From the NCBI RefSeq assembly GCF_011620665.1, contig NZ_WOYQ01000006.1, positions 4,168-68,167 of the forward strand: DNA of 64,000 nucleotides, read 5' to 3'. Position 1 is the stretch's first letter. Every line of letters starts with the position of its first letter. A program made the translations under genes and the position numbers. This document shows, piece after piece, positions 1 through 64,000 of the stretch. The notes under the pieces are model-generated. The model searched no databases. It saw only the letters and a list, made by a program, of their open reading frames with translations, and was not told where the DNA came from. This stretch comes from Microbacterium sp. (GTDB lineage: Bacteria > Actinomycetota > Actinomycetes > Actinomycetales > Microbacteriaceae).

Positions 1-1
1 C

Positions 2-253
2 GTCGAGGAGGCACTCCACCGCGTGATGGCCGCGACGACGACGCTGGTCGTCGCGCACCGGCCGTCAACGGTCATGCTCGCCGATCGGGTCGCGCTGCTC
101 GAAGCCGGACGCATCTCGGCGGTCGGCACGCACAGCGAACTCCTCCGCACGAGCGAGCACTATCGCTACGTGATCTCGAGCCTTGAGAGTGGTCTTCGGC
201 GAGCGCAGGGTCAGACCCGGACCCAGACCCGGACCGAGGAGGTGGACCTGTGA
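2..253 (+). CDS. ABC exporter ATPase/permease, C-terminal fragment (5' truncated by window edge)
   Basis: Frame reads [23 protein letters not shown] (H-loop), ends TGA 253 overlapping next GTG; likely heterodimer partner of the next gene. Confidence 0.85.
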
Positions 254-2064
254 GCACAACCGTCACCGGAACCAGCGGCGAAGACCGCTCCGACTACACG
301 CGTGATGAGTCCCGCGCGATACGACGCCGTTCGCTGCGCCTGCTCGGTTCGCTCGTCGAACCGCTGAGGCTCCAACTCGCGCTCGCCGGAATCGTGCTGG
401 TCGTCTCGACAGCGCTGCGGGTGGCCGGGCCGGCACTGATCGCCTACGGCATCAACTCGGCGCTCCCGCAGGTGATCGAGGACACGAACTGGATGCCGAC
501 GATCGCGGTCGTCGCGGTCTACCTCGTGTCCGGCATCGGCGGTGCGGCGCTCATCGGCTGGTACGCCGTCGTCGCCGCGCGCCTGACACAGGCCGTCATG
601 CTCGATCTCCGCACACGCATCTTCCTGCACACGCAGCGGCTCAGTCTGGAGTTCCACGAGTCGTACACGTCGGGCCGGATCATCTCGCGCCAGACGAGCG
701 ACCTCGACTCGATCCGCGAACTCCTCGACGGCGGTCTGAACGAGCTCGTGTCGGGCGTTCTCTACGGCGGTTTCACCCTGGTCGCGCTCCTGCTGATCGA
801 CTGGCGATCGGGGTTGGTCCTGGCTGCCGCCGGTGTGCCGCTGTATCTCCTGATGCGGTGGTTCTACCGCAACTCTCAGCGTGCGTACCGCGAATCGCGG
901 GTGATCAGCGCGAAGGTGATCGTCAAGTTCGTCGAGACGATGACCGGCATCCGCGCCGTGAAGGCGTTCCGCAAGGAGGAGCGCAACGACGACGAGTTCG
1001 GCGAGCTGTCCGGGCAGTACCGTGACGTGAATGTCCGCTCGCTGCGCCTGTTCGGCACGTTCGAGCCGGGAATGATGGTCGTCTCGGCGGTCGCGGTCGC
1101 GGGGGTGCTCCTCTGGGGCGGTTTGCGCGTGGGTTCCGGGACGCTGGCGATCGGCACCCTGCTGGCGGCCGTGCTGTACGTGCGCAACTTCTTCTCGCCG
1201 TTGCAGGATGTCGCGTTCTTCCTGAACTCGTATCAGTCCGCCACCGCTGCGCTCGAGAAGGTGTCGGGGGTGCTCGAGGAGCAACCCACGGTCGCCGACC
1301 CCACCCGCCCGGTGGACCTCTGGAACGCGCGCGGGCACGTCGAGTTCCGCGACGTCGTCTTCGGCTACGCGAGCGACCGGACGATCCTGCCGCGCTTCTC
1401 GCTCGACATCCCGGCGGGGCAGACGATCGCCCTGGTCGGGACGACGGGCGCGGGAAAGACGACGCTCGCGAAACTGGTGTCGCGGTTCTACGACCCGTCG
1501 AGCGGGGTGGTGACTCTCGACGGCGTCGACCTGCGGTCGCTGCACCCGAAGGATCTGCGCCGCGCGATCGTCATGGTCACGCAGGAGGCGTACCTGTTCA
1601 GCGGCACGGTCGCCGACAACATCGCACTCGGCAAGCCCGACGCGACGCTCGACGAGATCAAGGCCGCCGCCCGCGCAGTCGGGGCGGAGGGCTTCATCGA
1701 GAGGTTGCCGCAGAGCTACGCCACCGACGTGAACAAGCGTGGCGGCCGGGTCTCGGCGGGTCAGCGCCAGCTGATCTCGTTCGCGCGCGCGTTCCTGGCC
1801 GATCCCGCGGTGTTGATCCTCGACGAGGCGACCGCCTCGCTCGACATCCCGAGTGAGCGCCAGATCCAGCATGCCCTCCAGACGCTGCTCGCCGACCGGA
1901 CCGCGATCATCATCGCGCACCGCCTGTCGACGGTGGCGATCGCCGATCGCGTGCTCGTGATGGAGAAGGGCGAGATCATCGAGGACGGCGCCCCCGAGAC
2001 CCTGATCGCCGGCGCGGGCACGTTCGCGCGACTGCACTCGGCCTGGCAGGAATCGCTCGTCTGA
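250..2064 (+). CDS. ABC exporter, fused TMD-NBD (multidrug/MdlB-like)
   Basis: TM helices, Walker A GTTGAGKT, signature VSAGQRQ, Walker [15 protein letters not shown]. Confidence 0.95.
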
Positions 2065-2074
2065 CGGTCATGCG

Positions 2075-2111
2075 GCCGACCCGTCGGCGGGGGAGGATGC
2101 CGGGGGTCGGC
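2075..2111. terminator. GC-rich hairpin between convergent genes, possible bidirectional terminator
   Basis: GCCGACCC (2075-2082) pairs with GGGTCGGC (2104-2111); no U tract. Confidence 0.4.
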
Positions 2112-2730: not shown

Positions 2731-4947
<2,217 letters not shown>

Positions 4948-12261: not shown

Positions 12262-12436
12262 CAAGAGTCCGGCGGAGAACGGCTCCAGCGTGACCCGAGG
12301 ATCGCGCATTGCGGTGATTCGCGGCCGATCGCGGCCAAGATCCCCCATCCCCTCGAGACCAGGAACCTCGCAGCGGGGTCGCAGCGGGGTCGCATCGACC
12401 CGGCACCGTCGACCCGGCATCCGCTAGGATCGGAGC

Positions 12437-12585: not shown

Positions 12586-13860
12586 ATGACCGATTCGTAC
12601 TTCAACGCCCCGCTCTCGGAGGTCGACCCCGAGATCGCCGCGGTGCTCGAGCGCGAGCTCGATCGTCAGCGCGGCTACCTCGAGATGATCGCCTCTGAGA
12701 ACTTCGTGCCGGTCTCGGTGCTGCAGTCGCAGGGTTCGGTGCTCACCAACAAGTACGCCGAGGGATACCCCGGCCGCCGCTACTACGGCGGCTGCGAGGA
12801 AGTCGACGTCGCCGAAGAGCTCGCGATCTCCCGCGCCAAGTCGCTCTTCGGTGCGGAGTTCGCCAACGTCCAGCCGCACTCGGGTGCAACCGCCAATGCG
12901 GCGGTGCTGCACGCGATCGCTCGCCCGGGCGACACGCTCCTCGGGCTCTCGCTCGACCACGGTGGTCACCTCACCCACGGCATGAAGATCAACTTCTCCG
13001 GCCGGCTCTACAACATCGTGGCGTACGGCGTCGACCCCGAAACCTCGATCATCGACATGGAGGAGGTTGCTCGTCTCGCACGTGAGCACCGCCCCAAGGT
13101 CATCATCGCGGGCTGGTCGGCATACCCCCGGCAGCTCGACTTCGCACGGTTCCGCGAGATCGCCGATGAGGTCGGCGCCCTCCTGTGGGTCGACATGGCG
13201 CACTTCGCCGGGCTCGTGGCCGCCGGCATCCACCCCTCACCCGTGCCGCACGCGCACGTGGTCTCGTCGACCGTGCACAAGACGATCGGCGGCCCGCGCT
13301 CGGGCTTCATCCTCACGAACGACGCCGACCTCGCCAAGAAGATCAACAGCGCGGTCTTCCCCGGGCAGCAGGGTGGCCCGCTCATGCACGTGATCGCCGC
13401 GAAGGCGACCGCCTTCAAGCTCGCGGCGACGCCGGAGTTCAAAGAGCGGCAGGAGCGTGTCCTTCGTGGCGCGGCCCTGCTCGCCGATCGCCTTTCTCAA
13501 CAGGACGTGAAGGATGCCGGCATCACGGTCCGCTCCGGCGGCACCGACGTCCACCTCGTGCTCGTCGATCTCCGCGATGCCGCGATCGACGGCAAGCAGG
13601 CCGAGGATCTGCTGCACGAGATCCGCATCACGGTGAATCGCAACGCGGTGCCGAACGATCCGCGTCCGCCGATGGTGACGTCGGGCCTGCGCATCGGGAC
13701 TCCGGCGCTCGCGACCCGCGGGTTCGGCGACGCCGATTTCACCGAGGTGGCCGACATCATCGCCCTCGCGCTCCTGCCCGGCGCCGACGTCGAATCGCTC
13801 CGCGCCCGCGCGATCGCGCTGACCCAAGCCTTCCCCCTCTACCCCCACCTCCACCAGTAA
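12586..13860 (+). CDS. glyA: Serine hydroxymethyltransferase
   Basis: [32 protein letters not shown] (PLP Lys), GLRIGTPA. Confidence 0.98.
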
Positions 13861-23510: not shown

Positions 23511-25400
23511 ATGGCCATCGCCGACATCGTCACCCGCCAGACCCCGAACGACCGCGCCGACGGCAGTGCGACAGTACCCCGCTACGGGGAGCGTCCTCGG
23601 ATCACCGGGCCTTCGATGGCGGAGTTGGAGGCGTGGGTGGCGGAGATCGCCGAGCTCACTCAGCCCGCCCGCATCCACTGGGTCGACGGGTCGCGCGCGG
23701 AGAACGACGCTCTCCTGCGCGAACAGGTCGACGAGGGCAAGCTGATCAAACTCAACCCCGAATGGCGTCCCGGGTCGTACCTCGCTCGTTCGCACCCGAG
23801 CGACGTCGCCCGCACGGAGGCGCGCACCTTCATCGCCTCCGAGAGGGAAGAAGATGCCGGGCCCACGAACAACTGGGTTGCACCGGCGGAGATCCGCGCG
23901 ACCATCACGCCGCTCTTCCGCGGCTCGATGCGCGGTCGAACGATGTACGTCGTGCCGTTCTCGATGGGTCCCGTCGGCGGCCCGCTCTCGCACATCGGGG
24001 TTCAGATCACCGACTCGGCGTACGCCGTCACCTCGATCGGGATCATGACCCGCGTCGGCACCGAGGTGCTGGAGCAGATCGCTGCGGGCAAGCCCTGGGT
24101 GAAGACCGTCCACTCGGTCGGCGCACCGCTCGCAGCGGGCGAAAAGGACGTCGCGTGGCCGTGCAATGACGAGAAGTACATCGTGCACTTCCCCGAAACC
24201 CTCGAGGTCTGGTCATTCGGCTCCGGCTATGGCGGCAACGCGATCCTCGCCAAGAAGTGCTTCGCCCTGCGTATCGCGTCGGTCATCGGCCGGGATGAGG
24301 GTTGGCTCGCCGAGCACATGCTCCTCATCCGCGTGATCGACCCGAAGGGGAAGGCGTACCACCTGGCCGCCGCATTCCCCTCCGCGTGCGGCAAGACGAA
24401 CCTGGCGATGCTGCGTCCGACGATCCCCGGCTGGCGCGTGGAGACGCTCGGCGACGACATCGCGTGGATCCGGCCCGGCGAGGACGGACGTCTGCACGCC
24501 ATCAACCCCGAAGCCGGGTTCTTCGGCGTTGCTCCGGGAACGGGCCAGTCCACCAACGTCGCCGCGGTCGAGACCCTGTGGGGAAACACCATCTTCACGA
24601 ATGTCGCCTTGCGTCCGGACGGCGATGTCTGGTGGGAGGGTCTCACCGATGAGGTGCCGGCCGAACTCATCGACTGGGAGGGGAACGCGTGGACCCCGGC
24701 ATCCGGCCGCCCCGCCGCCCACCCCAACTCTCGCTTCACCGTTGCAGCGGCCCAGTGCCCGCAGATCGCTCCCGACTGGGAGGCTGCTGAGGGTGTCCCG
24801 CTCGATGCGATCCTCTTCGGCGGTCGTCGGGCCACGAATGTGCCGCTGGTGCTCGAGGCCACGGACTGGACGCACGGCGTGTTCCTGGGGTCGAACATCT
24901 CGTCCGAGCGCACGGCGGCCGCCGAGGGCACGGTCGGGGAGCTTCGCCGCGACCCGTTCGCAATGCTTCCGTTCTGCGGGTACAACATGGCGGACTACTT
25001 CGCCCACTGGCTCGATGTGGGCCGGAAGCTGCGCTTCGATCGCGCGCCGCGGATCTTCCAGGTGAACTGGTTCCGCAAGGGCGCGGACGGCCGGTTCCTG
25101 TGGCCCGGTTTCGGCGACAACTCGCGCGTCATCGAGTGGATCATCCGTCGCATCGATGGCAGCGTGCCCGCGGTCGACAGCCCCATCGGCCGTCTGCCGC
25201 GGACGGAGGATCTGAACCTCGACGGGATCCACGTACCGCAGGAAGACCTCGACGAGCTCTTCGCGGTCGACCCGGAGCTCTGGCTGCACGAAGCCGACCT
25301 CACAGAGGAGTTCTACCAGACCTTCGGGGGCAAAGTGCCTGCGGCGCTCTACTCGGAGCTCGCTGCCCTGCGTTACCGGCTCAAGCTCGCGCAGCGCTGA
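23511..25400 (+). CDS. pckG: GTP-dependent phosphoenolpyruvate carboxykinase
   Basis: [45 protein letters not shown]; AAGGAG RBS before 23511. Confidence 0.97.
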
Positions 25401-25449
25401 CGGCTCAGAGATCGGTCCGTACTGAACGAGGAGTCGAGCCGCAGCCCCG

Positions 25450-25755
25450 TCAGGGGACGGTGATGCGGCTCACGCGCACCGTGACACGCGCATCCGGTTC
25501 GTCGAGCACGGCGCGCACTCGCGCGGCAACGGTGCGAGCCACATCGGCCGCGCGTCCGTGGGAGACGCCGATGCTGACGACTGCCTCAAGCACCCCATTG
25601 CGCCGCAGCACGTCGCTGTAGACCTCTCGTCGCTCTACGGTCGCGGTCCATAACCGGGCAGGGAGTGCCGCGGCGTGGTACAGCTCTGCCACCCCCGACA
25701 CCTCACGGACGGCAGCGTCGACCTGTGCGATCAGTTCGGCGACTTCTCGCATCAT
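25450..25755 (-). CDS. Small Asp23-like hypothetical protein
   Basis: Coupled to upstream gene; VSGVAEL...VARTVAARVRAVL..RVTVRVSRI resembles the Asp23/Gls24 pattern. Confidence 0.6.
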   Translation of the reverse strand: MMREVAELIAQVDAAVREVSGVAELYHAAALPARLWTATVERREVYSDVLRRNGVLEAVVSIGVSHGRAADVARTVAARVRAVLDEPDARVTVRVSRITVP

Positions 25756-26330
25756 CGGCTCTCCCCCTGCAGTCGCAGGGAGTCGATGGTGACATCCACC
25801 CGATCGACCGCCCAGGTCGTGTGCTCGAGGAGTGCGCGGCGTACTTCGTTGCGCACGTCCCCGGCGACGGTCGGCAGGGTCAGTCCGTGCAGAACGCTGA
25901 TCGACAGCGCGATGCTGACCGTGCGTGCACCGTCCGGCGCTGCGCCGTCGATCAGCACCTCGACGCGCTCGACCAGTACCCCGGGCACCCTGTCTCCCGC
26001 TGCGCGCACGAGGCCGCGCACCGCGCCCTCGGTCACAACGAGCTGGACGTCACCTCCGCCTTCCATCGGCATGTCCCTGCCTGCACGCGACTCGCGCGCG
26101 ACTTGCCCCAGGATCTTCTGCAACCACGATTCCGAGAGGTCGAGCGCGGAGTCGCTCTCGAGGAGATTCCGCGAGAGCATCCCGAGGTGATCCATCGAAT
26201 CCAGCACCGAGCAACACTGCGGGTCGCCGTCGATCGCCGGATCCGCGGGAACACGGCCGCGATCGTGGTACGCAGCGAGATCCTCGAGGGTGTACCCCGA
26301 CTCGCCGATGCCGTCTCCCATGGCGTTCAC
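25752..26330 (-). CDS. Putative anti-sigma: degenerate ZAS-like N-terminus fused to Asp23/Gls24 domain
   Basis: Overlaps sigma stop; LEDLAAYHDRG..IDGDPQCC; C-term AVRGLVRAAGDRVPGV..VAGDVRNEVRRAL..VDRVDVTI; start GTG 26330 or ATG 26321. Confidence 0.7.
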   Translation of the reverse strand: MNAMGDGIGESGYTLEDLAAYHDRGRVPADPAIDGDPQCCSVLDSMDHLGMLSRNLLESDSALDLSESWLQKILGQVARESRAGRDMPMEGGGDVQLVVTEGAVRGLVRAAGDRVPGVLVERVEVLIDGAAPDGARTVSIALSISVLHGLTLPTVAGDVRNEVRRALLEHTTWAVDRVDVTIDSLRLQGESR

Positions 26331-26872
26331 CTCCACTCCTGCATGCGTTGATAGATTGTCGCGCGTGCGCGGGCGAGGCGGCCACGGACAGCCGTCCCGG
26401 AGATGCCCATTTCGCGGGCGATCTCGTCGTATCCGTATCCACTGGCTTCGCGCAGCAACCATACGGTGCGCTGTTCGAGAGGCAGGCTGTCGATCACGGC
26501 CCTCAGCGAGTCCAGCTGGGAGGACGTGATCGCCGCCTCATCGGGGCGCGGTGCGGTCGCGACCGGCTCCGCGTCGTCGATGCGCGTCGTCGGCCGGGCC
26601 GAGCGCAGCCGGTCGGTGGCCTTCCGCGCGACGATGGCCGACAGCCAGGCGCGCACCTGCGCGGGGTCTCGCAGATCGGGCAGCCGGCGCCACGCGACGA
26701 TCAACGCCTCCTGCACACAGTCATCGGCATCGGAGCGAGAGCCCAGAAGTCGGGTCGCGAAGCCGAGGAGATACCCCCCGTGCCGGCGCACAAGCGTGGC
26801 GAAGGCCCGCTCATCGCCGTCGGCGGCGCGCCTTGCGAGGATCGCATCCTCGATATCTGCCCACGAATCCAT
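26327..26872 (-). CDS. ECF sigma-70 factor
   Basis: Region 2 DADDCVQEALIVAWRRL, region 4 LPLEQRTVWLLRE..YDEIAREMGISGTAVRGRLARAR. Confidence 0.93.
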   Translation of the reverse strand: MDSWADIEDAILARRAADGDERAFATLVRRHGGYLLGFATRLLGSRSDADDCVQEALIVAWRRLPDLRDPAQVRAWLSAIVARKATDRLRSARPTTRIDDAEPVATAPRPDEAAITSSQLDSLRAVIDSLPLEQRTVWLLREASGYGYDEIAREMGISGTAVRGRLARARATIYQRMQEWR

Positions 26873-27079
26873 CGTTCTCCTGAGCGGGATCTCGCATCCC
26901 GCCTCACCGAGGGTGCCACACGCACCCGGAGTTTCCGCGGGGGTTGCGATCCGGACGGCGGCATGCTGTGCAGGGCCGCGCTCAGGAAACTGCCAGCATC
27001 ACGACCGTGACGAATCGGCCGCGGCGGACGTCTCACTCCTGAACGCCCCCGCACGAGGGGCCGCGGAAAGGACCACATC

Positions 27080-27508
27080 ATGGCCACCACGAACATGCCT
27101 GCTGCCGGATCGAGCGTCGGAGCCGTTATGCCTGCGGAGCAGGGCAAGACCGTCATCGTCGACCCGGTCATCGCGAAGATCGCCGGAATCGCGGCGGCGT
27201 CCGTTCCCGGCGTCTACGCCCTCGGAGGTGGAGCGGCGCGCGTCCTCGGCAGCATCCGTGAGGCGGTCGGTGCGAAGGACCTCTCTCAGGGAGTGAGCGT
27301 GGAGGTCGGCGAGACACAGGTCGCTGCCGACATCACGATCGTCGCTGAGTACCCCGTACAGCTGCAGCGGGTCGCCCAGGATGTGCGCGGTGCGGTCGCC
27401 GACGCCATCACCCAACTCGCCGGGATGGAGGTCGCGGAGATCAATGTGACCGTCGTCGATGTCCGGATTCCCGGTGACGAGGACTCGGCTCCGGAGCGTG
27501 TCCAGTGA
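27080..27508 (+). CDS. Asp23/Gls24 envelope stress protein
   Basis: GKTVIVDPVIAKIAGIAA..VPGVYALG, GVSVEVGETQVAAD, EINVTVVDV; AAAGGA RBS. Confidence 0.92.
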   Translation: MATTNMPAAGSSVGAVMPAEQGKTVIVDPVIAKIAGIAAASVPGVYALGGGAARVLGSIREAVGAKDLSQGVSVEVGETQVAADITIVAEYPVQLQRVAQDVRGAVADAITQLAGMEVAEINVTVVDVRIPGDEDSAPERVQ

Positions 27509-27693
27509 CACCGATCGCCTGGGGAGCGACGGTGGGCGCTATTCTGGCGTTCGCCGCCCTCGCCTTCGGCTTCTGGGGAATGGTGCTCGTTGCCGCGTTG
27601 GCGGCCGTCGGCGGACTCATCGGCGGCGCCGTGTCCGGACGCATCAACGTCCGTGCGGGTCTCGACGCCGCCCGCGGACGGCGAGTGGGCTGA
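27505..27693 (+). CDS. Small membrane protein (DUF2273-like)
   Basis: 62 aa, two hydrophobic segments, typical position after asp23. Confidence 0.75.
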   Translation: MTPIAWGATVGAILAFAALAFGFWGMVLVAALAAVGGLIGGAVSGRINVRAGLDAARGRRVG

Positions 27694-27695
27694 TC

Positions 27696-28007
27696 ATGGA
27701 CGCCATGCAGCTGCCTGGCCGGGTCATGATTGCGGCTCGGGCCTACGAGCGTGTCGCTGCGACCGTGATCGCCGACGAACTCGGAGTCGCCGCGCGGGGC
27801 GCCCGCGCCGTCGTGCGCGACGCCGACGGAGCGATCGCCGCGGATCTCACCTGCGGCATCGGTCTCGGCGAAGCGCCGATAGCGCAGCGCGCCGCACGGG
27901 CGCGCACGCGTACCGCCGAGAGGCTGGCTGAGATCACCGGCGCCCGGGTGGCCGATGTGCGACTACGCGTGTCCCATGTCGTCGATGAACGGGGGGGAGC
28001 ATCGTGA
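27696..28007 (+). CDS. Small Asp23-like hypothetical protein
   Basis: PGRVMIAARAYERVAA..LAEITGARVADVRLRV; coupled to neighbours. Confidence 0.65.
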   Translation: MDAMQLPGRVMIAARAYERVAATVIADELGVAARGARAVVRDADGAIAADLTCGIGLGEAPIAQRAARARTRTAERLAEITGARVADVRLRVSHVVDERGGAS

Positions 28008-28594
28008 CCCACGAGCCGGCGCCGACAGCTGTCGCCGATCAGCGCCGCGACGCCCGTCTCGCGCGTCGCCTCCTGCACCGCACCCGAAGCATATGGGTGT
28101 CCATCGCTCTGATCCTCGCAATGGCCCTCGCGATCCTCGTGATCGTCGAGACGCTTCTGTGGGGACGAGACCTGCCTCCCGCACTCGTGGCTCCTGACGC
28201 GGTGCGCGCCGCTATGACCGAAGGAGGATTCTTCGGCGGCGTGGTCGCGGGGATCGCGCTCGTGCTGGGCCTGGCGTGCCTCTGGGGCGCCCTCGCCCCC
28301 GGCGGCACGCACCGCCGCATCGTGACGACCGAGCGCGCGCCGATCGTCGTCGACGACGCGATCCTGGCGGGTGGGCTCTCGCGGACCTGCGCGCATGCGG
28401 CGGGCGTATCGGCGACGCAGGTCACGACGCGGGTCACCCGGCACCGCGCCCTCATCGCCGTGACACCCTCGAGCGGCTTCGCGGTCGACGCGAGCGAGGT
28501 CGAGCGCGCCGCCGGCGAACTGCTCGAGGTCCTCGGTGCAGGAACGCACATGAAGACCCGGGTAGAGCTGGCCAGGAAAGGAAACCTGTCATGA
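28004..28594 (+). CDS. Membrane protein, AmaP/DUF6286-like
   Basis: Two TMs then a cytoplasmic domain; GTGA overlap with previous gene. Confidence 0.7.
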   Translation: MTHEPAPTAVADQRRDARLARRLLHRTRSIWVSIALILAMALAILVIVETLLWGRDLPPALVAPDAVRAAMTEGGFFGGVVAGIALVLGLACLWGALAPGGTHRRIVTTERAPIVVDDAILAGGLSRTCAHAAGVSATQVTTRVTRHRALIAVTPSSGFAVDASEVERAAGELLEVLGAGTHMKTRVELARKGNLS

Positions 28595-29148
28595 ATGCCC
28601 GCGGTCGCGTTCTCAACCGGACGCTGCTCACGCTGCTCGCTCTGACCGCCTTCGCCGTCTGCGCAGTGGCAGCATGGCCGCTCGTCACCGGTGCACCCGC
28701 GCCCGTGCTGGATCAGGGGGCGCGTTTCGCGGAGGAACTCGGAGTCGGCTTGCCGGCTCTCATGTGGGTCGGCGTCGCCCCGCTGGTCGTCGCGGTCATC
28801 GTCGCCCTCGCCGTGATCCTGACCCGCCCACCGCGGCACGTTCGCGCTGCGTTCGAGGACGGCGGGCTCACGATCGACGCGGCGGTCGTCGAAGGGGTCT
28901 TCCACTCGGCGCTGGCTGCGACGCCCGACGTGCTCGGCGTCTCGTCATCGACCTCGGAGCACCGGCGTCGACGCACGGTCGTGCTCCGGGTGCGGGTGCG
29001 GCCTCGCGCTGACCTGGAGACCGTGCTGACCCAGGTGCGGTCGGCCCTCGAGACGACCGACCGACGGATCGGCGTGCGCCTGCCGTTGATCGTGCACATC
29101 ACGGGTGGCATCCGCTCGACGTTCGCGCACGACCGGCGAGTGGTGTGA
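28591..29148 (+). CDS. AmaP-like membrane anchor protein
   Basis: NRTLLTLLAL TM, second TM, C-terminal beta-rich domain (VLRVRVRPRAD); ATGA overlap. Confidence 0.7.
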   Translation: MNARGRVLNRTLLTLLALTAFAVCAVAAWPLVTGAPAPVLDQGARFAEELGVGLPALMWVGVAPLVVAVIVALAVILTRPPRHVRAAFEDGGLTIDAAVVEGVFHSALAATPDVLGVSSSTSEHRRRRTVVLRVRVRPRADLETVLTQVRSALETTDRRIGVRLPLIVHITGGIRSTFAHDRRVV

Positions 29149-29192
29149 TCCGTCGGCGGCGCGGCGGCGCTGCGGCGCGGCGGGGGATCGGC

Positions 29193-31088
29193 TCACACCA
29201 GCAGCTGGTGCCGAGCGAGTTCGCGGTACAGCGGCACGGTCTCGACGAGGTCGGAGTGGGTTCCCTGCCCGACAACCGTGCCGTGGTCGAGCACGATGAT
29301 CAGATCGCTGTCGACCACGGTCGACAGCCGGTGCGCGATCACAACGAGGGTCCGCCCGGTCGCGACGGCATCGATCGCGTCGCGCATCCTCTGTTCGTTG
29401 AGCCCATCAAGCGACGACGTCGACTCATCCAGGAGCAGGATCGGCGGGGCTGCCAGCAGTGCACGTGCGATCGCCAGCCGCTGACGTTCACCACCCGAGA
29501 GCATGACGCCGCCCTCGCCGACCGGAGCGTTCAGCCGGAGGGGACTGCGCTCCAGCACCTCACCGAGATTCACGGCGCGGAGCACTCTCTCGCATTCGGC
29601 ATCACTCGCGGCGGGCGAAGCGAGCCGCAGATTCTCGGCGATCGTGCCGGCCAGGGTCGGGGCATCCTGCTCGACGTACCCCAGTTGCGCGCGCAGGTCA
29701 CGCCGGTCGAGAGTGCGCACATCCCGCCCGTTCAGGAGTATTGCACCCTCGCTCGGGTCGTAGAACCGTTCGATGAGGGCGAGCGTCGTCGACTTGCCGG
29801 CGCCCGACGGACCGACCAGGGCGACACGCGCTCCACGCGGCACGCGGAACGAGACCCCGCGCAGCACCTCACGAGGGGAGGCCTGTTCCGCCGATGGCAG
29901 AGTGATCGCCGCGGAGTCGACGTGGGCGTCTTCGAGGGCCGCAAGTGCCTCGGTCTCGGCCTTGCGTCGAGCCGCGACGACGTGCTCGGGATACCGGAAG
30001 CGGACGTCGCGGAACTCGAGTGCATCTGACCCCGCGACGTCGCCGACCGCGCCGCGGGCGAGGTGCGGATCGCCCGCGGTCTCGGTCGGCAGATCCAGAA
30101 TCTCCTGGATGCGTCCGAGGGCGCCCAGCGCCTGATTCACGGAGGTGATCGCCCCGAAGAAGGATCCGAGCGGCGCCACAAGCAGGAAGAGGAACATGAC
30201 GAAGGTGATCAGGCTCGCGATCGGGATCGCGCCGGATGCCACGCGGAACCCGCCGAGGCCGAGCACCACCAGCAGCGACACCTGAAGAGCGATGCCGGCG
30301 ATCGGGACGACGAGCGCCGACACCTTCGCGATCCTCACGCCGATGCCGTAGACGTCGGTCGCGACGGCGGTCACCGCTTCGGTTTCGCGGTCGGTGGCAC
30401 CGGCGGCGCGTACGGTGCGGATCGAGCCGATGGCTCGCTCGACGCCGGAGGCGAGTTCGCCGACCTTCTCCTGCTGCTGCTGTGTCGCCCGGCGGATGCG
30501 GCCGCTCAGCAGGGCGACGCCCCCGACAGACAGGCCGATGACGACGACGATCGCCACCAGCAGGATCGGGTCGAGGAAGGCCATCGCGAGGATCGCTCCG
30601 ATGAAGAGCAGGGCATTGCCGACCGAATCGGCGAGGCCCTGGGTCAGTACGGCGTAGAGAAGCGTCGTGTCGGTGCCGACCCGTGAAACGAGATCTCCGG
30701 TGCGGCGCGAGTCGAATTCGCTGATCGGGAGGTGGAGGATCCGGGCGATCAGCTGGCGCCGTGACGAATAGACGACGGCGGTGCCTGTGCGCTGCAGGAG
30801 ATAGTGCTGGTATCCCGTGATGAGCGAACCTCCGATCACGAGAGCGACGATTCCCCAGATGAGCGTCCCGAGACCTTGTTCGTTCTGCACCCGCTCGATG
30901 ATCTGCCCCACCAGCAGCGGCTGGGCGAGAGTTGCCCCGGCGCCGACGATGCTCAGCACGACGATCAGGACGAGGACGCGCTTGTGCTCGAAGATGTAGG
31001 GGAGCAGTTGCGTGAGGCGAGCGCGGGGCCCGCCCTCGGGCGCGGAGCGGCGGCCGCGGCGACGCGGTGATGCGGTGGCAGAGGACAT
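29193..31088 (-). CDS. ABC exporter, fused TMD-NBD
   Basis: GPSGAGKST, LSGGERQRLAIAR, LLLDESTS, AHRLST. Confidence 0.95.
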   Translation of the reverse strand: MSSATASPRRRGRRSAPEGGPRARLTQLLPYIFEHKRVLVLIVVLSIVGAGATLAQPLLVGQIIERVQNEQGLGTLIWGIVALVIGGSLITGYQHYLLQRTGTAVVYSSRRQLIARILHLPISEFDSRRTGDLVSRVGTDTTLLYAVLTQGLADSVGNALLFIGAILAMAFLDPILLVAIVVVIGLSVGGVALLSGRIRRATQQQQEKVGELASGVERAIGSIRTVRAAGATDRETEAVTAVATDVYGIGVRIAKVSALVVPIAGIALQVSLLVVLGLGGFRVASGAIPIASLITFVMFLFLLVAPLGSFFGAITSVNQALGALGRIQEILDLPTETAGDPHLARGAVGDVAGSDALEFRDVRFRYPEHVVAARRKAETEALAALEDAHVDSAAITLPSAEQASPREVLRGVSFRVPRGARVALVGPSGAGKSTTLALIERFYDPSEGAILLNGRDVRTLDRRDLRAQLGYVEQDAPTLAGTIAENLRLASPAASDAECERVLRAVNLGEVLERSPLRLNAPVGEGGVMLSGGERQRLAIARALLAAPPILLLDESTSSLDGLNEQRMRDAIDAVATGRTLVVIAHRLSTVVDSDLIIVLDHGTVVGQGTHSDLVETVPLYRELARHQLLV

Positions 31089-31157
31089 ATCGGCTTTCTG
31101 GAGAATCGGGTGGTTCCATTCTCACCCGCGCTTCCCCCGGGGGCTCCGTCGATCGCG

Positions 31158-32609
31158 CTACAGTGATCCGGTCTCGCCGAGCCCGAGATTGGCGTCGTAG
31201 TCGACGTCCTTCGTCTCTTTCGACAGCAGCAGCGCGACGAGCGTCAGAATCGCGGAGCCGCTGAGGTAGACGCCCACGAGCCACGGCTGCCCACCCGCGG
31301 CTGCCCACAGCGCGACGGCGACGATCGGAGCAAGCGCGGCGCCGAGGATCGAGGAGACGTTGTACGCGATCGCCGAACCCGTGTAGCGCACGTTCGTCGG
31401 GAAGAGCTCTGGAAGGATGGCGCCCATCGGGCCGAACGTGGAACCCATCAGCACGAAGCCGAAGACCAGGAACGCCTGAACGAGCGCGCCCGTGAACTTC
31501 GGATCCGCTTGCGGCAGCAGGAACACGTTGAACAGCAGACCGAAGACCGCGATGCCGCCCGTCACCCAGAGGAGCAGCTTGCGGCGGCCGACGGCGTCGG
31601 CGATCGGACCCGACAGCAGGGTGAAGACGCCGAAGAAGATGACGCCGACGATCTGCATGAGCACGAAGTCGGTATAGCCGAATCCGAGCCCCGCGACGTA
31701 GGTGTTCGGGTCGAATGCTGTGCCGGCGGCGTCGGCGGCGGCCCGAGCGGCATCCGTCGTCGGCTTCGTTCCGTACGAGAGCGTGAAGCTCGTCATGAGG
31801 TAGAAGAGGACGTACGTCGCGAGCATGATGAACGTGCCGAGGATGAGATTCTTCCAATGGGAACGGATGACCTCGCCGAGCGGGAAGCGGCGAATAGCGC
31901 CGGCGGACTCGGCCTTCGCGAACGTCTCGGATTCGACCAGGCGCAGACGCACCCAGAGGCCGATGATGACCATGACCGCAGAGAAGAGGAACGGCACCCG
32001 CCAGCCGAAGGCCAGAAACGCCTCCGAGCGCTGGGTGGGTCCGTCCGGGTGCGGCAGCGCGAAGTTGATGACGAGGAAGATCGTGTTGGCGATGATGAAG
32101 CCGATGGGCGCACCCAACTGCGGGAAGGTGCCGTACCAGGCGCGCTTCCCCTTCGGTGCATTCTCGGTGGCCACGAGGGCGGCGCCCGACCACTCGCCGC
32201 CGAGCGCGAATCCCTGAAAGAGTCGCAGGATCAGCAGGAGCAGCGCTGCCCACCAGCCGATCTCGTTGAAAGTGGGCAGGAATCCGATCAGGAACGTCGC
32301 GATCCCCATCGTCAGCAGAGACGCGACGAGTGTCGCCTTGCGGCCGAATCGGTCGCCGAAGTGCCCGAAGATGACAGCTCCGACCGGGCGCGCGACCATC
32401 GCGGCTCCGAACACGGCGAATGACGACAGCAGTGCCGTGGTTTCGTTGCCGGTCGGGAAGAAGAGGATCGGGAAGACGAGTACAGCGGCCGTCGCATAGA
32501 CGTAGAAATCGTAGAACTCGATCGTGGTGCCTATGAGACTCGCCGTGATGACCCGCGAGCGGGGATTGGCCGGAGCGAGGGCGGGGGCAGGGGTGGAGGC
32601 GGAGGACAT
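31158..32609 (-). CDS. MFS metabolite:H+ symporter (MHS, ShiA/ProP-like)
   Basis: GTTIEFYDFYVY, GHFGDRFGRK, GFALGGEWSGA, FGWRVPF. Confidence 0.93.
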   Translation of the reverse strand: MSSASTPAPALAPANPRSRVITASLIGTTIEFYDFYVYATAAVLVFPILFFPTGNETTALLSSFAVFGAAMVARPVGAVIFGHFGDRFGRKATLVASLLTMGIATFLIGFLPTFNEIGWWAALLLLILRLFQGFALGGEWSGAALVATENAPKGKRAWYGTFPQLGAPIGFIIANTIFLVINFALPHPDGPTQRSEAFLAFGWRVPFLFSAVMVIIGLWVRLRLVESETFAKAESAGAIRRFPLGEVIRSHWKNLILGTFIMLATYVLFYLMTSFTLSYGTKPTTDAARAAADAAGTAFDPNTYVAGLGFGYTDFVLMQIVGVIFFGVFTLLSGPIADAVGRRKLLLWVTGGIAVFGLLFNVFLLPQADPKFTGALVQAFLVFGFVLMGSTFGPMGAILPELFPTNVRYTGSAIAYNVSSILGAALAPIVAVALWAAAGGQPWLVGVYLSGSAILTLVALLLSKETKDVDYDANLGLGETGSL

Positions 32610-40157: not shown

Positions 40158-41021
40158 CTACTTGAGCAGCCGGCTGAGCCTCCGGTCGGCGAGCAGCTTC
40201 CCGCCGGTCTGGCACGTCGGGCAGTACTCCAGCGACCTGTCGGCGAAGAACACCGAGCGCACCTGGTCGCCGCAGACCGGGCAGGCCTCGCCGCGGCGGC
40301 CATGGACGGCCATTCCACGTCGCTTGGCATCCTTCAGGTCGGCGGGCGGCGTGCCGGAAGCCGCCGCGACCGCCTCGGTCAGGGTACGACTCAGCGCTGC
40401 ATACAGAGCATCGATGTCGTCGGCATCCAGACCCGTCGCGAGCGCATACGGTGACATGCGCGCGGCGTGGAGGATCTCATCCGAGTACGCGTTGCCGATG
40501 CCGGCGATGATCGACTGGTCGCGCAGGACGCCTTTGATCTGGGTGCGCCGGCCCGCGAGCAGACCCGCCAGGGTGTCGCGGGTGAATTCGCCGGTGAGGG
40601 GATCCGGACCCAGCCGGGCGATGGCGGGCACATCCCCGGGGTCGCGGGCCGCGTAGACAGCCAGCGACTTCCTGGTCCCGGCCTCGGTCAGATCGAATCC
40701 CGATTTGTCGTCGAAGGCGACTCGAAGTGCGATCGCGCTCTTGCCCGGGCGGATCAGGGTGCCGGGCAGCTGCTCATACCACCGGAGCCATCCCGCTCTG
40801 GCCAAGTGGAAGATGAGGTGGATGCCGGCATCCGTCATCACATCGACGAACTTGCCGTGCCGCGCGGCCGCTGTCACCGTCGACCCGACGAGCGCGTCGA
40901 GCGGCGGGTCGTAGGTCTTGAGCGCCGCGATGTTCGCGACGGTCGCCTTCGTCACCTTCAGCCCGGCTGCACGCGCCGCGAGGAAATCGACGAGGCCCTG
41001 CACCTCCGGCATCTCCGGCAT
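40158..41021 (-). CDS. Fpg/Nei DNA glycosylase/AP lyase
   Basis: N-term PEMPEV, H2TH DQSIIAGIGNAYSDEILH, zinc finger CPVC..YCPTCQ. Confidence 0.92.
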   Translation of the reverse strand: MPEMPEVQGLVDFLAARAAGLKVTKATVANIAALKTYDPPLDALVGSTVTAAARHGKFVDVMTDAGIHLIFHLARAGWLRWYEQLPGTLIRPGKSAIALRVAFDDKSGFDLTEAGTRKSLAVYAARDPGDVPAIARLGPDPLTGEFTRDTLAGLLAGRRTQIKGVLRDQSIIAGIGNAYSDEILHAARMSPYALATGLDADDIDALYAALSRTLTEAVAAASGTPPADLKDAKRRGMAVHGRRGEACPVCGDQVRSVFFADRSLEYCPTCQTGGKLLADRRLSRLLK

Positions 41022-62535: not shown

Positions 62536-63365
62536 AGCTGGCCGATCACGCGCGCGAGCAGCGCCGAGATCACCGGCTCTGCCGCCTGCCCGGCCTCGAG
62601 CACCTCGCGATGGCTGAGGGGAGTGGTCTGGATGCCGGCGGCCATGTTGGTGATGAGCGAGAAGCCGAGGATCTCCATGCCGGACTCGCGGGCGGCGATC
62701 GCCTCGAGGGTCGTGGACATGCCGACGATGTGTCCTCCGATCGTCTTGGCCATCCGCACCTCGGCGGGAGTCTCGTACTGCGGACCGCGGAACTGGCAGT
62801 ACACGCCTTCTTCGAGCGACGGGTCGACGTGACGGGCGAGGTCGCGCAGCCGTGTCGAGTAGAGGTCGGTCAGGTCGATGAAGGTCGCGCCCTCCAGCGG
62901 AGAATCTCCGGTGAGGTTGATGTGGTCGCTGATGAGCACGGGCTGGCCGGGGGTCCACGTCGGCTTGATCCCGCCGGCGCCGTTGGTGAGCACCATCGTC
63001 TTCGCCCCGGTCGCGGCCGCGGTGCGCACGCTGTGCACGACGCGGCGGACGCCGTGGCCCTCGTAGTAGTGCGTGCGGGCCCCGATGACCAGCACCCGCT
63101 TGCCCGACGAGGTGAGGATGCTGCGGAGCGACCCCACGTGGCCGGCCAGCGCGGGCGCGCTGAAGCCGGTCACATCGGTGGCCGCAAGGGTGGCGGTCGT
63201 CTCGCCGATAAGGTCGGCGGCCTTGCCCCATCCGCTGCCGAGGGTGAGGGCGATGTCGTGCCGGTCCACTCCCGTCAGACGGGCGATATCGGCGGCAGCG
63301 TCGGCGGCGACGGCGAACGGGTCAGCGCCCGGGTCGTCGAGAGGGTGGGTGATCGAATCGGACAT
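62532..63365 (-). CDS. punA: Purine-nucleoside phosphorylase (trimeric type)
   Basis: LGSGW, RTHYYEG, LTNGAGG, GPQYETPAE, VGMSTTLE, ITNMAAG. Confidence 0.95.
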   Translation of the reverse strand: MSDSITHPLDDPGADPFAVAADAAADIARLTGVDRHDIALTLGSGWGKAADLIGETTATLAATDVTGFSAPALAGHVGSLRSILTSSGKRVLVIGARTHYYEGHGVRRVVHSVRTAAATGAKTMVLTNGAGGIKPTWTPGQPVLISDHINLTGDSPLEGATFIDLTDLYSTRLRDLARHVDPSLEEGVYCQFRGPQYETPAEVRMAKTIGGHIVGMSTTLEAIAARESGMEILGFSLITNMAAGIQTTPLSHREVLEAGQAAEPVISALLARVIGQL

Positions 63366-63449
63366 GGTCCTACTCTATGAATCCAGAGGCCCACGGGCCA
63401 GGCGGAGCCGGTCGCTGTGCGCCGCGCGCGGACTGAGAGAATGGAAGGC

Positions 63450-64000
63450 ATGTCCGTGAGCTTCGTGAGCAACCAGAGCGTCGCCGTCCTCGGCGGCGGT
63501 CCCGGCGGATACGAAGCGGCACTCGCCGCCGCCCAGCTCGGCGCTGAAGTCACGCTCGTCGAGCGTGCCGGCGTCGGCGGCGCGGCCGTCATGACAGACG
63601 TCGTCCCGTCGAAGAGTCTCATCGCGACCGCGGATGCCGCGGTGGCCATCGCGGAGGCTTCCGACCTCGGGGTTCAGCTGTTCTCGAAGTCGGACAGCGG
63701 GAGTCCGATGAAGCCCGAGATCGCGATCAATCTTGCTGCCGTGAACAGGCGCCTCTTGTCGCTCGCGCGACAGCAATCCGACGACATGCGGGCACAGCTG
63801 GTCGATGCGGGGGTCCGGATCGTCTCAGGCCACGGACGGCTGGACGACCGCAACTCGATCGTCGTCTCCACCGGCCCCGGGGGGACGGACTTCGACCGGG
63901 TCGAGGCGGACACACTCGTCGTGTCGGTCGGTGCCTCTCCCCGTGCGCTTGCGAGCGCGCAGCCCGACGGCGAGCGGATCCTCACCTGGACGCAGCTCTA
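63450..64000 (+). CDS. lpdA: NAD(P)H-quinone reductase LpdA-like flavoprotein (3' truncated by window edge)
   Basis: Absent from ORF track (no stop); VLGGGPGGYEAA, GGAAVMTDVVPSKSLIA: the LPD CxxxxC disulfide is replaced, as in mycobacterial LpdA. Confidence 0.85.
   Translation, partial: MSVSFVSNQSVAVLGGGPGGYEAALAAAQLGAEVTLVERAGVGGAAVMTDVVPSKSLIATADAAVAIAEASDLGVQLFSKSDSGSPMKPEIAINLAAVNRRLLSLARQQSDDMRAQLVDAGVRIVSGHGRLDDRNSIVVSTGPGGTDFDRVEADTLVVSVGASPRALASAQPDGERILTWTQL

Follow-up and report, generated by a model that had tools for sequence, protein, structure and literature searches.

To our knowledge, only three kinds of hyper-abundant genome word have received any explanation: uptake sequences, Chi sites and polar translocase guides. 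Uptake sequences, whose defining property is preferential uptake, include the USS of Pasteurellaceae (core AAGTGCGGT) and the DUS of Neisseriaceae (GCCGTCTGAA and dialects). Chi is exemplified by GCTGGTGG, which is read by RecBCD, and by AGCGG, which is read by AddAB. Another such word, HIP1, is still unsolved after 30 years. USS and DUS occur about once per kb, equally in both orientations and without polarity, with a frame bias and enrichment of the peptides that they encode; foreign DNA is depleted in them, their spacing is more even than random, and copies come and go through mutation, not transposition (PMC2817400). The HIPs of cyanobacteria are palindromes that co-occur with cognate orphan methyltransferases (PMC4390886). 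Chi is a self marker that is read in one orientation and is accumulated by some phages (PMC3784561), and replication polarity is used in the literature as a criterion for calling it.

We describe here an 8-mer, GGATGCCG, that is as dense as USS and DUS in another phylum. The window, which is the whole 64,000-nucleotide stretch analysed (1..64000), contains 80 exact GGATGCC/GGCATCC sites on both strands (38 GGATGCC and 42 GGCATCC on the plus strand). The chance level, based on 100 dinucleotide-preserving shuffles, is 16.3 +/- 4.0, with 31 as the largest value. A first-pass annotation had counted about 37 and 42 sites where about 15 were predicted, and both its count and the excess were borne out. 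Its named reading frames were all correct (W-M-P at 491, G-I-R at 946, S-A-S at 2991 and 3414, K-D-A at 13512 and 14356), and its intergenic sites at 2095, 12416, 14899 and 47401 hold up. Among the 80 heptamers, 63 are the 8-mer GGATGCCG/CGGCATCC, 29 on the plus and 34 on the minus strand, or about 1 per kb. Representative features of the window are as follows.

491..498, plus strand: GGATGCCG copy in the frame xGG-ATG-CCG (W-M-P), in the gene at 250-2064; this frame class has 95 observed versus 37 expected.
945..952, minus strand: GGATGCCG copy whose sense-strand reading is C-GGC-ATC-C (G-I-R), the preferred-codon frame; 535 versus 252 expected.
2095..2102, plus strand: intergenic GGATGCCG copy, flanked by genes that end at 2064 and 2113.
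2990..2997, minus strand: GGATGCCG copy in the frame xCG-GCA-TCC (S-A-S), with the rare Ala codon GCA; the top-enriched frame, 329 versus 18 (18x).
12415..12422, minus strand: intergenic GGATGCCG copy upstream of glyA.
13512..13519, plus strand: GGATGCCG copy in the frame xxG-GAT-GCC-G (K-D-A-G), with the minor Asp codon GAT, in glyA.
24705..31747, no strand assigned: longest GGATGCCG-free stretch of the window (7.05 kb), with a sigma/anti-sigma/Asp23-like cluster and its neighbours.
40820..40833, no strand assigned: 14-bp palindrome GGATGCCGGCATCC, made of two overlapping GGATGCCG copies in opposite orientation, within a gene.

Composites like this palindrome number 8 genome-wide versus about 0.3 expected. 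Across the 2.2-Mb Microbacterium genome, GGATGCCG has 1,993 copies (980 on the plus and 1,013 on the minus strand; about 1 per kb) and tops the ranking of 8-mers, with observed/expected ratios of 7.8, 7.1 and 5.3 under Markov models of orders 1-3. The heptamer had been put forward as a genome signature; its genome-wide excess stands, but the unit is the 8-mer, as G follows GGATGCC in 78% of heptamers. The signal requires all 7-8 bases, with GGATG alone merely 1.2-1.5x over expectation. Examination of the flanks found no information outside positions 1-8 except weak preferences at -1 and +9, and flank "dialects" vary between genera. A longer repeat, a mobile element or a REP/MITE-type dispersed repeat was rejected on the basis of the lack of a conserved flank and the location of 91% of copies in genes; REP/MITE-type repeats have conserved sequence beyond their core and are mostly intergenic. 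String searches of the literature for the word matched only primers.

One alternative is that GGATGCCG simply follows from the usage of amino acids, codons or codon pairs, or is the relic of a repeated mobile element. The frame GGC-ATC-C does consist of preferred codons with a high baseline (252 expected), and composition alone gives motif/control ratios of about 2 in other families. However, after within-gene, protein-preserving shuffling of synonymous codons, the 1,812 coding copies observed compare with 471.5 +/- 18 expected (3.8x), and the 2,299 coding heptamers with 910 +/- 18. The first-pass annotation had named a codon-preserving shuffle as the test that could refute its signature, and the excess survives it. 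Its suggestion to check frames and spacers likewise led to a clear result: all six frames are enriched, from 2.1x to 18x (frame totals 13 to 786), the largest class being xxG-GAT-GCC-G (786 versus 153 expected), and 176 intergenic copies were found versus 20-33 expected. This roughly 8x intergenic excess makes GGATGCCG the top-ranked intergenic 8-mer, at 0.84/kb (expectation about 0.1/kb) compared with about 0.9/kb in coding DNA. Its remark on disfavoured codons was also right: GAT encodes 29% of Asp residues and GCA 9% of Ala residues. Since the excess survives the synonymous shuffle and extends to all six frames and to intergenic DNA, it is not an effect of codon or dipeptide usage. The use of rare codons, the unconserved flank beyond position 8 and the lack of any excess in relatives with similar GC and proteins are further arguments against a by-product or mobile-element relic, to which we assign next to no probability. 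A coding or chance origin of the abundance is ruled out.

The peptides that the word encodes are enriched. The ratio of R-H-P to its reverse order is 1.8-4.0 in word-rich genomes versus 1.0 in the word-free genome G079, and compared with the latter, G-I-[PLHQR] peptides are raised about 1.6x per residue. A terminator role was rejected: convergent spacers (0.78/kb) are not enriched beside tandem (0.88/kb) and divergent ones (1.01/kb), 30 of 40 close inverted pairs lie within genes, and inverted pairs have no terminator association.

Where the protein sequence allows the word, it is often present. GGATGCCG occupies 33% of 5,453 synonymous-permissive positions versus 7.9% expected; log-odds are raised in each of the frames, by +1.4 to +3.2, and by about +2 per eligible position. 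Occupancy in three other genera is 34-35%. At jointly permissive positions where this genome lacks the word, relatives carry it in 30-35% of cases, compared with 7-17% for controls. Extra sharing of sites between species declines with divergence, and special conservation of individual sites was rejected, being no stronger than for control words. Copies of GGATGCCG are thus lost and gained over time, with different species acquiring them anew on their own, in a process that is active and convergent. The only other matching contigs found were 99.9-100% identical and belong to the same population.

The two orientations are equally represented. Plus and minus counts per contig fit 1:1 (chi2 25.5, 34 df), the strand of copies is unrelated to GC skew (Spearman rho 0.007), and a 400-kb stretch of one replichore in G122 has 173 and 168 copies on its two strands. 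Per-contig counts and GC skew show no replication or transcription polarity of GGATGCCG, and a polarity of the Chi/KOPS type was rejected on the same grounds, in agreement with the earlier view of a strand-symmetric, DNA-level signature of the HIP1/DUS kind.

Neighbouring copies do, by contrast, show a strand effect. Adjacent copies form 805 same-strand versus 1,108 opposite-strand pairs. Where a same-strand copy lies no more than 250 bp away, occupancy falls to 0.230, versus 0.352 where there is none (OR 0.55, p=1e-13), and suppression fades with distance (OR 0.76 at 250-500 bp, 0.84 at 0.5-1 kb). Opposite-strand neighbours cause no suppression (OR 1.09-1.25). The interference was replicated in three other genera (same-strand OR 0.51, p=6e-10; opposite-strand 1.15) and is unique to GGATGCCG among 157 abundant 8-mers. 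It is not gene-bound; a coding artefact was rejected by the shuffle null (0.46 opposite versus 0.66 observed), as was an RNA-level cause, the effect being equal on sense and template strands. Spacing of all copies pooled is Poisson (CV 1.02), whereas copies of one orientation taken by themselves are under-dispersed over short distances (CV 0.91-0.96), with half the expected number of gaps <=100 bp. This suppression of same-strand copies within about 0.5-1 kb is new here. Its restriction to one strand argues for a strand-specific reader of limited reach and against local mutation bias, although it could instead reflect an unrecognised mutational or structural process.

We propose, at a probability of roughly 45%, that GGATGCCG is a cis-acting DNA tag that is read in a strand- or orientation-specific manner by a cellular machine with a reach of a few hundred bases to about 1 kb. 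That a protein reads the word, acting on single strands or directionally, is inferred, as is the pathway that it would serve. A continuing genome-wide pressure (log-odds about +2) would write the word wherever its cost is low, that is, at synonymous positions in six frames, in spacers and occasionally through an amino-acid change; individual copies would be lost and then regained independently in different species. Same-strand copies would be thinned within about 0.5 kb, and opposite-strand copies independent, because the strands act separately and a second nearby copy adds little. The process served would most likely be the treatment of DNA that has come in or been broken, for homologous recombination, with the word as a "self" tag like an uptake sequence or Chi. 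Weak selection, a transmission bias linked to recombination, or the two together would supply the pressure.

Strong enrichment of GGATGCCG is limited to Microbacteriaceae and includes most of the family. Densities there form a continuous range from 0.02 to 1.4/kb that varies even within one genus, and about 50 other actinomycete families have <=0.21/kb. A "dialect" replacement word was sought in the word-free genus g67, and none of comparable strength was found. Foreign-looking DNA carries 0.60/kb versus about 1.0/kb and includes near-empty stretches of 10-20 kb. Lytic phages of the genus carry the word at 2.0x the codon-shuffle expectation, in both orientations, which is weaker than the host excess, and temperate phages carry no more of it than lytic ones. 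Phages with Exo/recombinase systems do not avoid the word (observed/expected 2.3-3.3). A strand bias in phages was rejected as a polarity signal, being accounted for by coding-strand constraint, and a link between phage recombinase content and GGATGCCG excess was rejected as the Chi pattern was not seen.

The first-pass annotation had offered maintenance by a methyltransferase plus biased repair. In such a scheme, modelled on HIP1, an enzyme acting on GGATG/GCATC or the whole word would be coupled to methylation-linked mismatch repair that converts near-matches. The co-occurrence of cyanobacterial HIP words with cognate methylases, a PF01555 methylase conserved in most of the family, and the somewhat elevated C>T variants GGATGCTG and GGATGTCG could be read in its favour. 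The genomes do not bear it out. This genome has no C5 methyltransferase (PF00145) gene, and together with 16 others it makes up 17 genomes with a motif/control ratio >12 that lack PF00145; the check across Microbacteriaceae proposed at the outset found no association of C5 methylase presence with abundance (p=0.13; 151 genomes). The PF02384 N6 methylase is absent here and from six other word-rich genomes, and the PF01555 enzyme is present whatever the abundance, including in 9/9 baseline genomes outside g67. No single-base variant of GGATGCCG, T-variants included, is depleted as very-short-patch repair would predict. C5 methylation with very-short-patch repair and the N6/N4 methylases were thus rejected, as was a Type IIS target GGATG/GCATC, given the weak excess of GGATG alone and the lack of methylase association; restriction-modification sites are usually avoided and not accumulated. 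GGATGCCG is also not a palindrome, and same-strand interference at 250-1,000 bp argues against local repair bias, which does not predict it. We regard maintenance by a methylase as very unlikely.

Returning to a strand-specifically read tag, one version is an uptake sequence for natural transformation, in which a surface or channel-associated receptor would prefer the word, and biased uptake and recombination would accumulate it. The orientation of the word would set the imported strand or direction, giving interference per strand. In density, symmetry, absence of polarity, frame bias, peptides, foreign-DNA depletion and perhaps, at short range, per-strand spacing, the word matches the properties listed in PMC2817400. 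Its flank dialects differ between genera, and turnover with convergent re-acquisition fits molecular drive. ComEC is found in 148/151 family genomes, including all word-rich genomes tested, but it is equally present in word-free genomes. Competence in Microbacteriaceae is undocumented in the literature searched, no receptor candidate was found, and we know of no natural transformation in the family. Coding density equal to intergenic density and a lack of terminator dyads also differ from USS and DUS, and the 2x excess in lytic phages, with temperate phages no higher, fits poorly. We consider this version fairly unlikely.

A second version is a Chi-like signal on the unwound 3' strand, read by an AdnAB-type helicase-nuclease or another end-processing motor. 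On meeting the word, the enzyme would cease to degrade and turn to recombination, which would mark the DNA as self, and both orientations would be equally needed if breaks are two-ended or if linear DNA entering the cell is what the enzyme acts on. Orientation-specific interference is expected of a translocase that moves in one direction with diminishing returns, GGATGCCG is an asymmetric 8-mer as is E. coli Chi, and the excess in lytic phages would be in keeping with shielding against a host nuclease. An AdnAB-type architecture was present in 26/26 genomes tested, all word-rich ones among them; according to the literature it is not known if there is a Chi for AdnAB, and Chi independence has also been proposed for this enzyme. 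AdnA similarity does not track GGATGCCG abundance, with AdnA equally conserved in baseline genomes, so ComEC and AdnA, both universal, were rejected as predictors. RecBCD was rejected as reader, with RecC in 0/151 family genomes, and the AddAB-type pair on contig C34 (with an eroded-helicase subunit), which had resembled a Chi reader, was rejected as island cargo found in 1/26 genomes, namely this one. No reader is singled out, as ComEC, AdnA and the conserved PF01555 methylase all occur in genomes without the excess. The lack of polarity, a density about 4x that of E. coli Chi, and the excess in Exo/recombinase phages, opposite to the Chi pattern in PMC3784561, also count against this version, which we consider unlikely.

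Thirdly, the word could have a housekeeping role as a strand-specific site, with weak selection maintaining thousands of copies much as it maintains codon bias. It might, for instance, be where strand-directed repair enters or nicks the DNA, or where a topoisomerase or other single-strand-acting enzyme works, and be needed on both strands throughout the genome. Even spread over coding and spacer DNA without polarity, per-strand interference that reaches about as far as repair tracts do (about 1 kb), a lesser excess in phages replicating in the same cytoplasm, and a log-odds of about +2, of the order seen for codon selection, are all consistent with this. However, we know of no such sequence-specific system in Actinobacteria, no candidate gene was found, and many members of the family, as well as every other family, manage without the word. 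A housekeeping site is accordingly distinctly unlikely.

Our tentative and more specific hypothesis, which may well be wrong, is that GGATGCCG belongs to a hitherto unrecognised, family-wide "self-DNA" tagging system of Microbacteriaceae. The word would be read strand-specifically when incoming or broken DNA recombines and be maintained by recombination-linked drive, with interference marking the reach of the reader, and it would be either the first uptake sequence outside Proteobacteria or the long-sought equivalent of Chi in the actinobacterial AdnAB pathway. If AdnAB is the reader, the mycobacterial and actinobacterial question of a Chi for AdnAB can be put to a direct test; if an uptake system is, sequence-specific transformation exists in Gram-positives. 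The family is large and culturable, and its genomes number in the thousands and its sequenced phages in the hundreds. Abundance is continuous, from none to 1.4/kb even in one genus, and amounts to a natural experiment in which phylogenetic association could lead to the reader. Any mechanism has to reproduce the quantitative footprint of the interference (about 0.5 kb, each strand separately), and the same statistic is applicable to USS, DUS and Chi and to further words that lack an explanation. Foreign DNA in these genomes is sensitively marked by the density of GGATGCCG, and the word in vectors or recombineering substrates might improve Microbacterium genetics.

Among known systems, KOPS, SRS and other architecture-imparting polar motifs are also 8-mers, read directionally by a translocase (FtsK/SpoIIIE), but they are defined by a pronounced strand skew with reversals at ori and dif, and GGATGCCG has no such skew. 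With Chi it shares an asymmetric short word (an 8-mer in E. coli) and over-representation in core DNA with scarcity in atypical DNA, and the directional logic of Chi would fit the interference. Unlike Chi, GGATGCCG is not polarised, its neighbours share a strand less often than chance, its density is about 4x that of E. coli Chi, its excess in phages does not follow their recombinase content, and its family lacks RecBCD, with no Chi known for AdnAB. HIP1 (GCGATCGC) is likewise an 8-mer at about 1/kb in all frames and spacers against codon preference, is lineage-wide with exceptions where it was lost, and has an unknown function (PMC4390886). Yet GGATGCCG is asymmetric (GGATGCCG and CGGCATCC differ), has no associated methylase and no replacement word where it is absent, and shows an orientation-specific interference that is impossible for a palindrome. 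USS and DUS differ from GGATGCCG in that the latter is not under-represented in coding DNA, is not paired as terminators, is raised 2x in lytic phages, and has a Gram-positive actinomycetotal host without documented competence or receptor. Like them, GGATGCCG is short, non-palindromic and present at about 1/kb, with orientations equal and without replication polarity; it lies in genes with a frame bias, enriches the encoded peptides and is depleted in foreign DNA; and it is lineage-restricted, with variable flanks, mutational turnover and perhaps, within each strand at short range, a similarly even spacing.

In the window, 80 exact GGATGCC/GGCATCC sites were counted, versus 16.3 ± 4.0 in dinucleotide-preserving shuffles. 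The first-pass annotation had judged the motif abundance accurately: 38 copies of one heptamer and 42 of the other lie on the + strand, and the reading frames and intergenic positions it listed were all correct on checking. The window spans C64:4168-68167. Across the assembly (2.21 Mb, 82 contigs, 68% GC), GGATGCC occurs 1,254 times and GGCATCC 1,287 times. A maximal-order Markov model leaves the heptamer merely 1.2x over-represented genome-wide, so the signal sits also in its sub-words and extensions. When all k-mers were ranked, the asymmetric 8-mer GGATGCCG and its reverse complement CGGCATCC (hereafter, the word) came out as the genome's top 8-mer under Markov orders 1-3, with 1,993 copies (0.90/kb) and observed/expected (O/E) ratios of 7.8, 7.1 and 5.3, respectively; 78% of heptamers have G at position 8. 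Beyond positions 1-8, the flanks weakly favour C (43%) or T (23%) at -1 and follow codon periodicity but display nothing more, and the word is thus not part of a longer repeat. None of its 24 single-base variants is depleted genome-wide, and several, among them C>T at positions 6 and 7, are elevated ~2-3x, the pattern expected of a decay halo.

Genes were called with our own simple caller (1,945 genes, 91% coding, GC3 85%), and synonymous codons were shuffled inside each gene so that proteins and codon usage were preserved. The codons GAT and GCA, previously remarked upon as disfavoured, account for 29% of Asp and 9% of Ala codons, respectively. The excess persisted under this codon-preserving shuffle, which had been suggested as a check: coding sequence holds 1,812 copies of the 8-mer versus 471.5 ± 18 expected, and 2,299 heptamers versus 910 ± 18. 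The word is enriched over the synonymous shuffle in six of six reading frames:

xxG-GAT-GCC-G: 786 observed, 153 expected
xCG-GCA-TCC: 329 observed, 18 expected
xxC-GGC-ATC-C: 535 observed, 252 expected
xGG-ATG-CCG: 95 observed, 37 expected
CGG-CAT-CC: 54 observed, 7.6 expected
GGA-TGC-CG: 13 observed, 2.9 expected

Intergenic DNA (209 kb) carries 176 copies (0.84/kb; 20-33 expected), and the word is its top 8-mer. Taken together, the excess over the shuffle and the intergenic excess mean that codon and dipeptide usage do not fully explain the word. The finding is real, and the excess is a property of the DNA, not of the proteins. Among 5,453 permissive positions, at which the word can be written synonymously, 1,801 (33%) carry it versus 431 (7.9%) expected from codon usage, a log-odds shift of +1.4 to +3.2 across all frames; occupancy in three other genera is 34-35%. 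The rarer-frame peptides R-H-P and G-I-x are mildly enriched relative to a word-free relative, so that the pressure sometimes alters proteins.

The reported lack of strand bias was borne out, as + and - counts per contig fit 1:1 (chi2 25.5, 34 df) and orientation is uncorrelated with GC skew (rho 0.007). Gene orientation is likewise without relation to it, and the 894 sense copies are matched by 918 antisense ones. With both orientations pooled, gaps between copies are Poisson (CV 1.02), and density is independent of within-gene position. Low-GC3 genes are poorer in the word (0.60 vs about 1.0/kb), the most codon-adapted genes are also lower in density, and a few atypical stretches of 10-20 kb are almost devoid of it. 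A terminator role was rejected because tandem, divergent and convergent spacers do not differ in density and most close inverted pairs are found inside genes. Two opposed copies form the palindromic composites GGATGCCGGCATCC (8 copies genome-wide) and GGATGCCGCGGCATCC (7 copies), which occur at ~20x expectation and mostly within genes; the reverse-arranged composite CGGCATCCGGATGCCG has just 2 occurrences. The window holds one of these opposed-copy composites:

40820-40833: opposed-copy palindromic composite, with 14 other places in the genome

Two further motifs were seen in spacers. TAGGCTG(G/A) is strongly over-represented (its two 8-mers have 36 and 31 copies versus ~2 expected), and 71% of copies lie ≤150 nt from the next same-strand start, often ~5-7 nt ahead of ATG/GTG; it resembles the usual -10 box (TANNNT) of leaderless transcripts. 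AAGTGGGAC (often CGAAAGTGGGACA) has 41 copies genome-wide (spacers 34-44 versus 3-5 expected), sometimes in adjacent 25-nt units (GAAAGTGGGACATGCATCCCCGCC), and lies far from the starts of genes, the next one on the same strand being a median 1.8 kb away.

Copies of the word are not placed independently of each other's strand. This same-strand INTERFERENCE between copies is described here as a new property. Adjacent copies are on opposite strands in 1,108 cases versus 805 on the same strand. Same-orientation pairs at 0-250, 250-500 and 500-750 bp number 139, 180 and 210, respectively, against a far-distance baseline of ~230, and opposite-orientation pairs are at baseline or slightly above. At short range, 62-66% of pairs are opposite, versus 45-49% in the codon-shuffle null. 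The interference tracks distance, not shared gene, is equal for a word on the sense or template strand, appears in every major frame class and is the same towards 5' as towards 3' neighbours. Testing occupancy of permissive positions gives full control for peptide context: positions with a same-strand copy at 9-250 bp are occupied in 23.0% of cases versus 35.2% otherwise (OR 0.55, p=1e-13), and the OR rises with distance to 0.76 (250-500 bp), 0.84 (0.5-1 kb) and 1.14 (farther away). With an opposite-strand neighbour the OR is 1.09-1.25, equal to the level of regional heterogeneity. The effect was replicated in three other genera sampled at 400 kb each, with 77 same-strand versus 149 opposite pairs within 250 bp (p=2e-6) and permissive-position ORs of 0.51 (same strand, p=6e-10) and 1.15 (opposite strand). 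Among 157 abundant non-palindromic 8-mers, the opposite-pair fraction has a median of 0.46 (5-95%: 0.35-0.53); the word's value of 0.65 is the highest, and the next ranks are held solely by words overlapping it. Perfect copies nearby make no difference to one-off variants, with the exception of GGATGCCA/T and GGATGCTG (0.61-0.67, small numbers), a hint that reading is strict over positions 1-6 or 1-7. Each orientation behaves as a point process of its own, inhibited at short range and independent of the other.

Same-strand interference is not what a local, context-dependent bias of mutation or repair would produce. Interference is predicted for a site that would exert an orientation- or strand-specific effect over hundreds of bases with diminishing returns. 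The best-supported reading is that the word is a cis-acting tag, read strand-specifically, with a reach of ~0.5 kb; an active, family-specific pressure would keep this tag at ~1/kb. A strand-specific site with a housekeeping function is a rival reading that we consider unlikely.

SdhA shares 98% identity with its counterpart in Microbacterium memoriense and 95% with the one in M. paulum, which places the organism in Microbacterium, family Microbacteriaceae. Short metagenome contigs (SRR10568510, SRR10568503; L136-L138) are 99.9-100% identical to the window, suggesting that the assembly is metagenome-assembled; judging from these matches, they probably mark the environmental population from which it came. 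Word density is 0.22-1.44/kb in twelve congeners and 0.08-0.21/kb in eight other families of the order. In 151 family genomes from >100 genera, the ratio of the word to its reversed control word varies continuously from 0.7 to 34 (median 5.9) and is consistent inside genera with some within-genus spread. In 156 genomes from ~50 other families of the class, density is at most ~0.21/kb and the ratio about 1-6. Across 80 orthologous 22-kb loci, M. schleiferi, M. oleivorans, M. arthrosphaerae and M. memoriense reach 1.3-1.5/kb, Mycetocola 0.7-0.9/kb, and both Leucobacter and a group of M. barkeri, M. oryzae, M. azadirachtae, M. sorbitolivorans and M. mitrae 0.09-0.32/kb.

Samples of relatives' genomes covered 314-400 kb. 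The same 8-mer ranks first in genera g10, g84 and g33, where its flank preferences differ. Such flank "dialects" vary by genus, the studied genome having merely a weak C/T at -1. Two genomes (G096 and G139; stretches L096-L135) have a strong C before the word, with CGGATGCC nearly as common as the 8-mer, and ACGGATGC is enriched in G139. Another (G122; L003-L022) has A before and C/T after it (GGATGCCGTC, 50 vs 3); this extended form, seen in some genera, shares ATGCCGTC with the Neisseria AT-DUS (ATGCCGTCTGAA), probably by coincidence. Genus g67 has the word at chance level (8 vs 9.9 in 314 kb), without a substitute of similar strength. The g67 genome G079 (L040-L055, 314 kb) has moderately enriched words of its own, namely GATCCGC (137 vs 36), CGATCCGC (79 vs 17.6) and CGGGAA (251 vs 83), all much weaker than GGATGCCG in other genomes.

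Turnover was compared at aligned positions permissive in both species, the nearest relative having a DNA identity of only ~85%. Where the studied genome has the word, relatives have it at 77%, 62% and 49% of positions, declining with divergence; where it lacks the word, they have it at 30-35%, versus 7-17% for control words. The has/lacks ratio of control words (2.3-3.2) is not below that of the word (2.6 falling to 1.4), so there is no special conservation of individual sites. Copies disappear and arise anew, density is what is maintained, and the pressure is active in many lineages.

Maintenance by a methyltransferase with biased repair, raised in the first-pass annotation, fared poorly. C5 methylases are absent from the studied genome and from 16 others with a ratio above 12, and their presence is not associated with word abundance across the family (Mann-Whitney p=0.13). 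PF02384 is found neither in the studied genome nor in six other word-rich genomes. A conserved PF01555 enzyme does occur in word-rich genomes, but also in nine of nine baseline genomes outside g67. This N6/N4 DNA methyltransferase of ~300-400 aa (C41:202-1020) has orthologues in almost all family genomes tested; a close orthologue is missing only in g67 and is elsewhere present whatever the word abundance. Methylation-linked repair is thus very improbable. RecC occurs in 0 of 151 genomes, and ComEC in 148 of 151, word-free ones included. The studied genome encodes an AdnAB-type pair, both subunits combining a UvrD helicase with a PD-(D/E)XK nuclease; AdnA is present in 26 of 26 genomes, with a degree of similarity unrelated to word abundance. 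The studied genome also has an AddAB-type pair, in which the 1,032-aa subunit keeps the nuclease alone; this pair is island cargo, carried by 1 of 26 genomes. No reader of the word was identified among these methylase, RecC, ComEC, AddAB-type and AdnAB-type candidates.

The AddAB-type genes lie outside the window in a cluster of very large genes that share one strand (contig 34; C34:35268-54769). Besides the pair (1,116 aa, UvrD plus PD-(D/E)XK; 1,032 aa, nuclease-only), it encodes proteins of 1,181 and 911 aa and a 1,001-aa P-loop protein, relaxase/TraA-like in appearance. Of 26 family genomes, the studied one alone has the AddB-like gene. Since the contig's first 20 kb are almost without the word and lower in GC, this is probably an integrated or conjugative element.

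Seventeen Microbacterium phages carry 267 copies in 888 kb, with an apparently strong strand bias. For 13 of the 17, gene calling specific to phages with subsequent codon shuffling gave 71 sense GGATGCCG versus 27.0 expected and 141 sense CGGCATCC versus 79.6. As the expectations differ by orientation, the bias is a coding constraint; an excess of 2.0x is nevertheless real and present in both orientations. Temperate phages are no higher in the word than lytic ones. Phages of clusters EC, EI and Appa, which have their own Exo/recombinase systems (PMC7302621), have O/E of 3.3, 2.4 and 2.3, not below other phages. The paper describing them does not mention the word (PMC7302621).

Our literature searches found no description of GGATGCCG or of uptake sequences in Actinobacteria. 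In our judgement, the most likely function is that of a recombination-linked "self" tag. One version is a Chi-like tag for AdnAB, which we hold doubtful, if somewhat more credible than a housekeeping site. Chi candidates have been required to be polarised (bioRxiv 10.1101/2020.08.13.249359), whereas the orientation of GGATGCCG is anti-correlated between neighbours; published work on AdnAB describes the existence of any Chi as unknown and reports a proposal that the enzyme acts independently of Chi (PMC5314763). The earlier comparison with HIP1 and uptake sequences stands in part. HIP words are palindromes tied to cognate methylases (PMC4390886), and GGATGCCG is neither. Uptake sequences differ in being under-represented in genes and often arranged as terminator dyads, neither of which applies to GGATGCCG. 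They resemble it in density, in occurring equally in both orientations without polarity, in frame bias, in enriched peptides and, when each orientation is taken alone, in even spacing at short range, and in an origin by mutation plus recombination (PMC2817400). A self tag of the uptake-sequence kind is the version to which we give most credence, if only tentatively.
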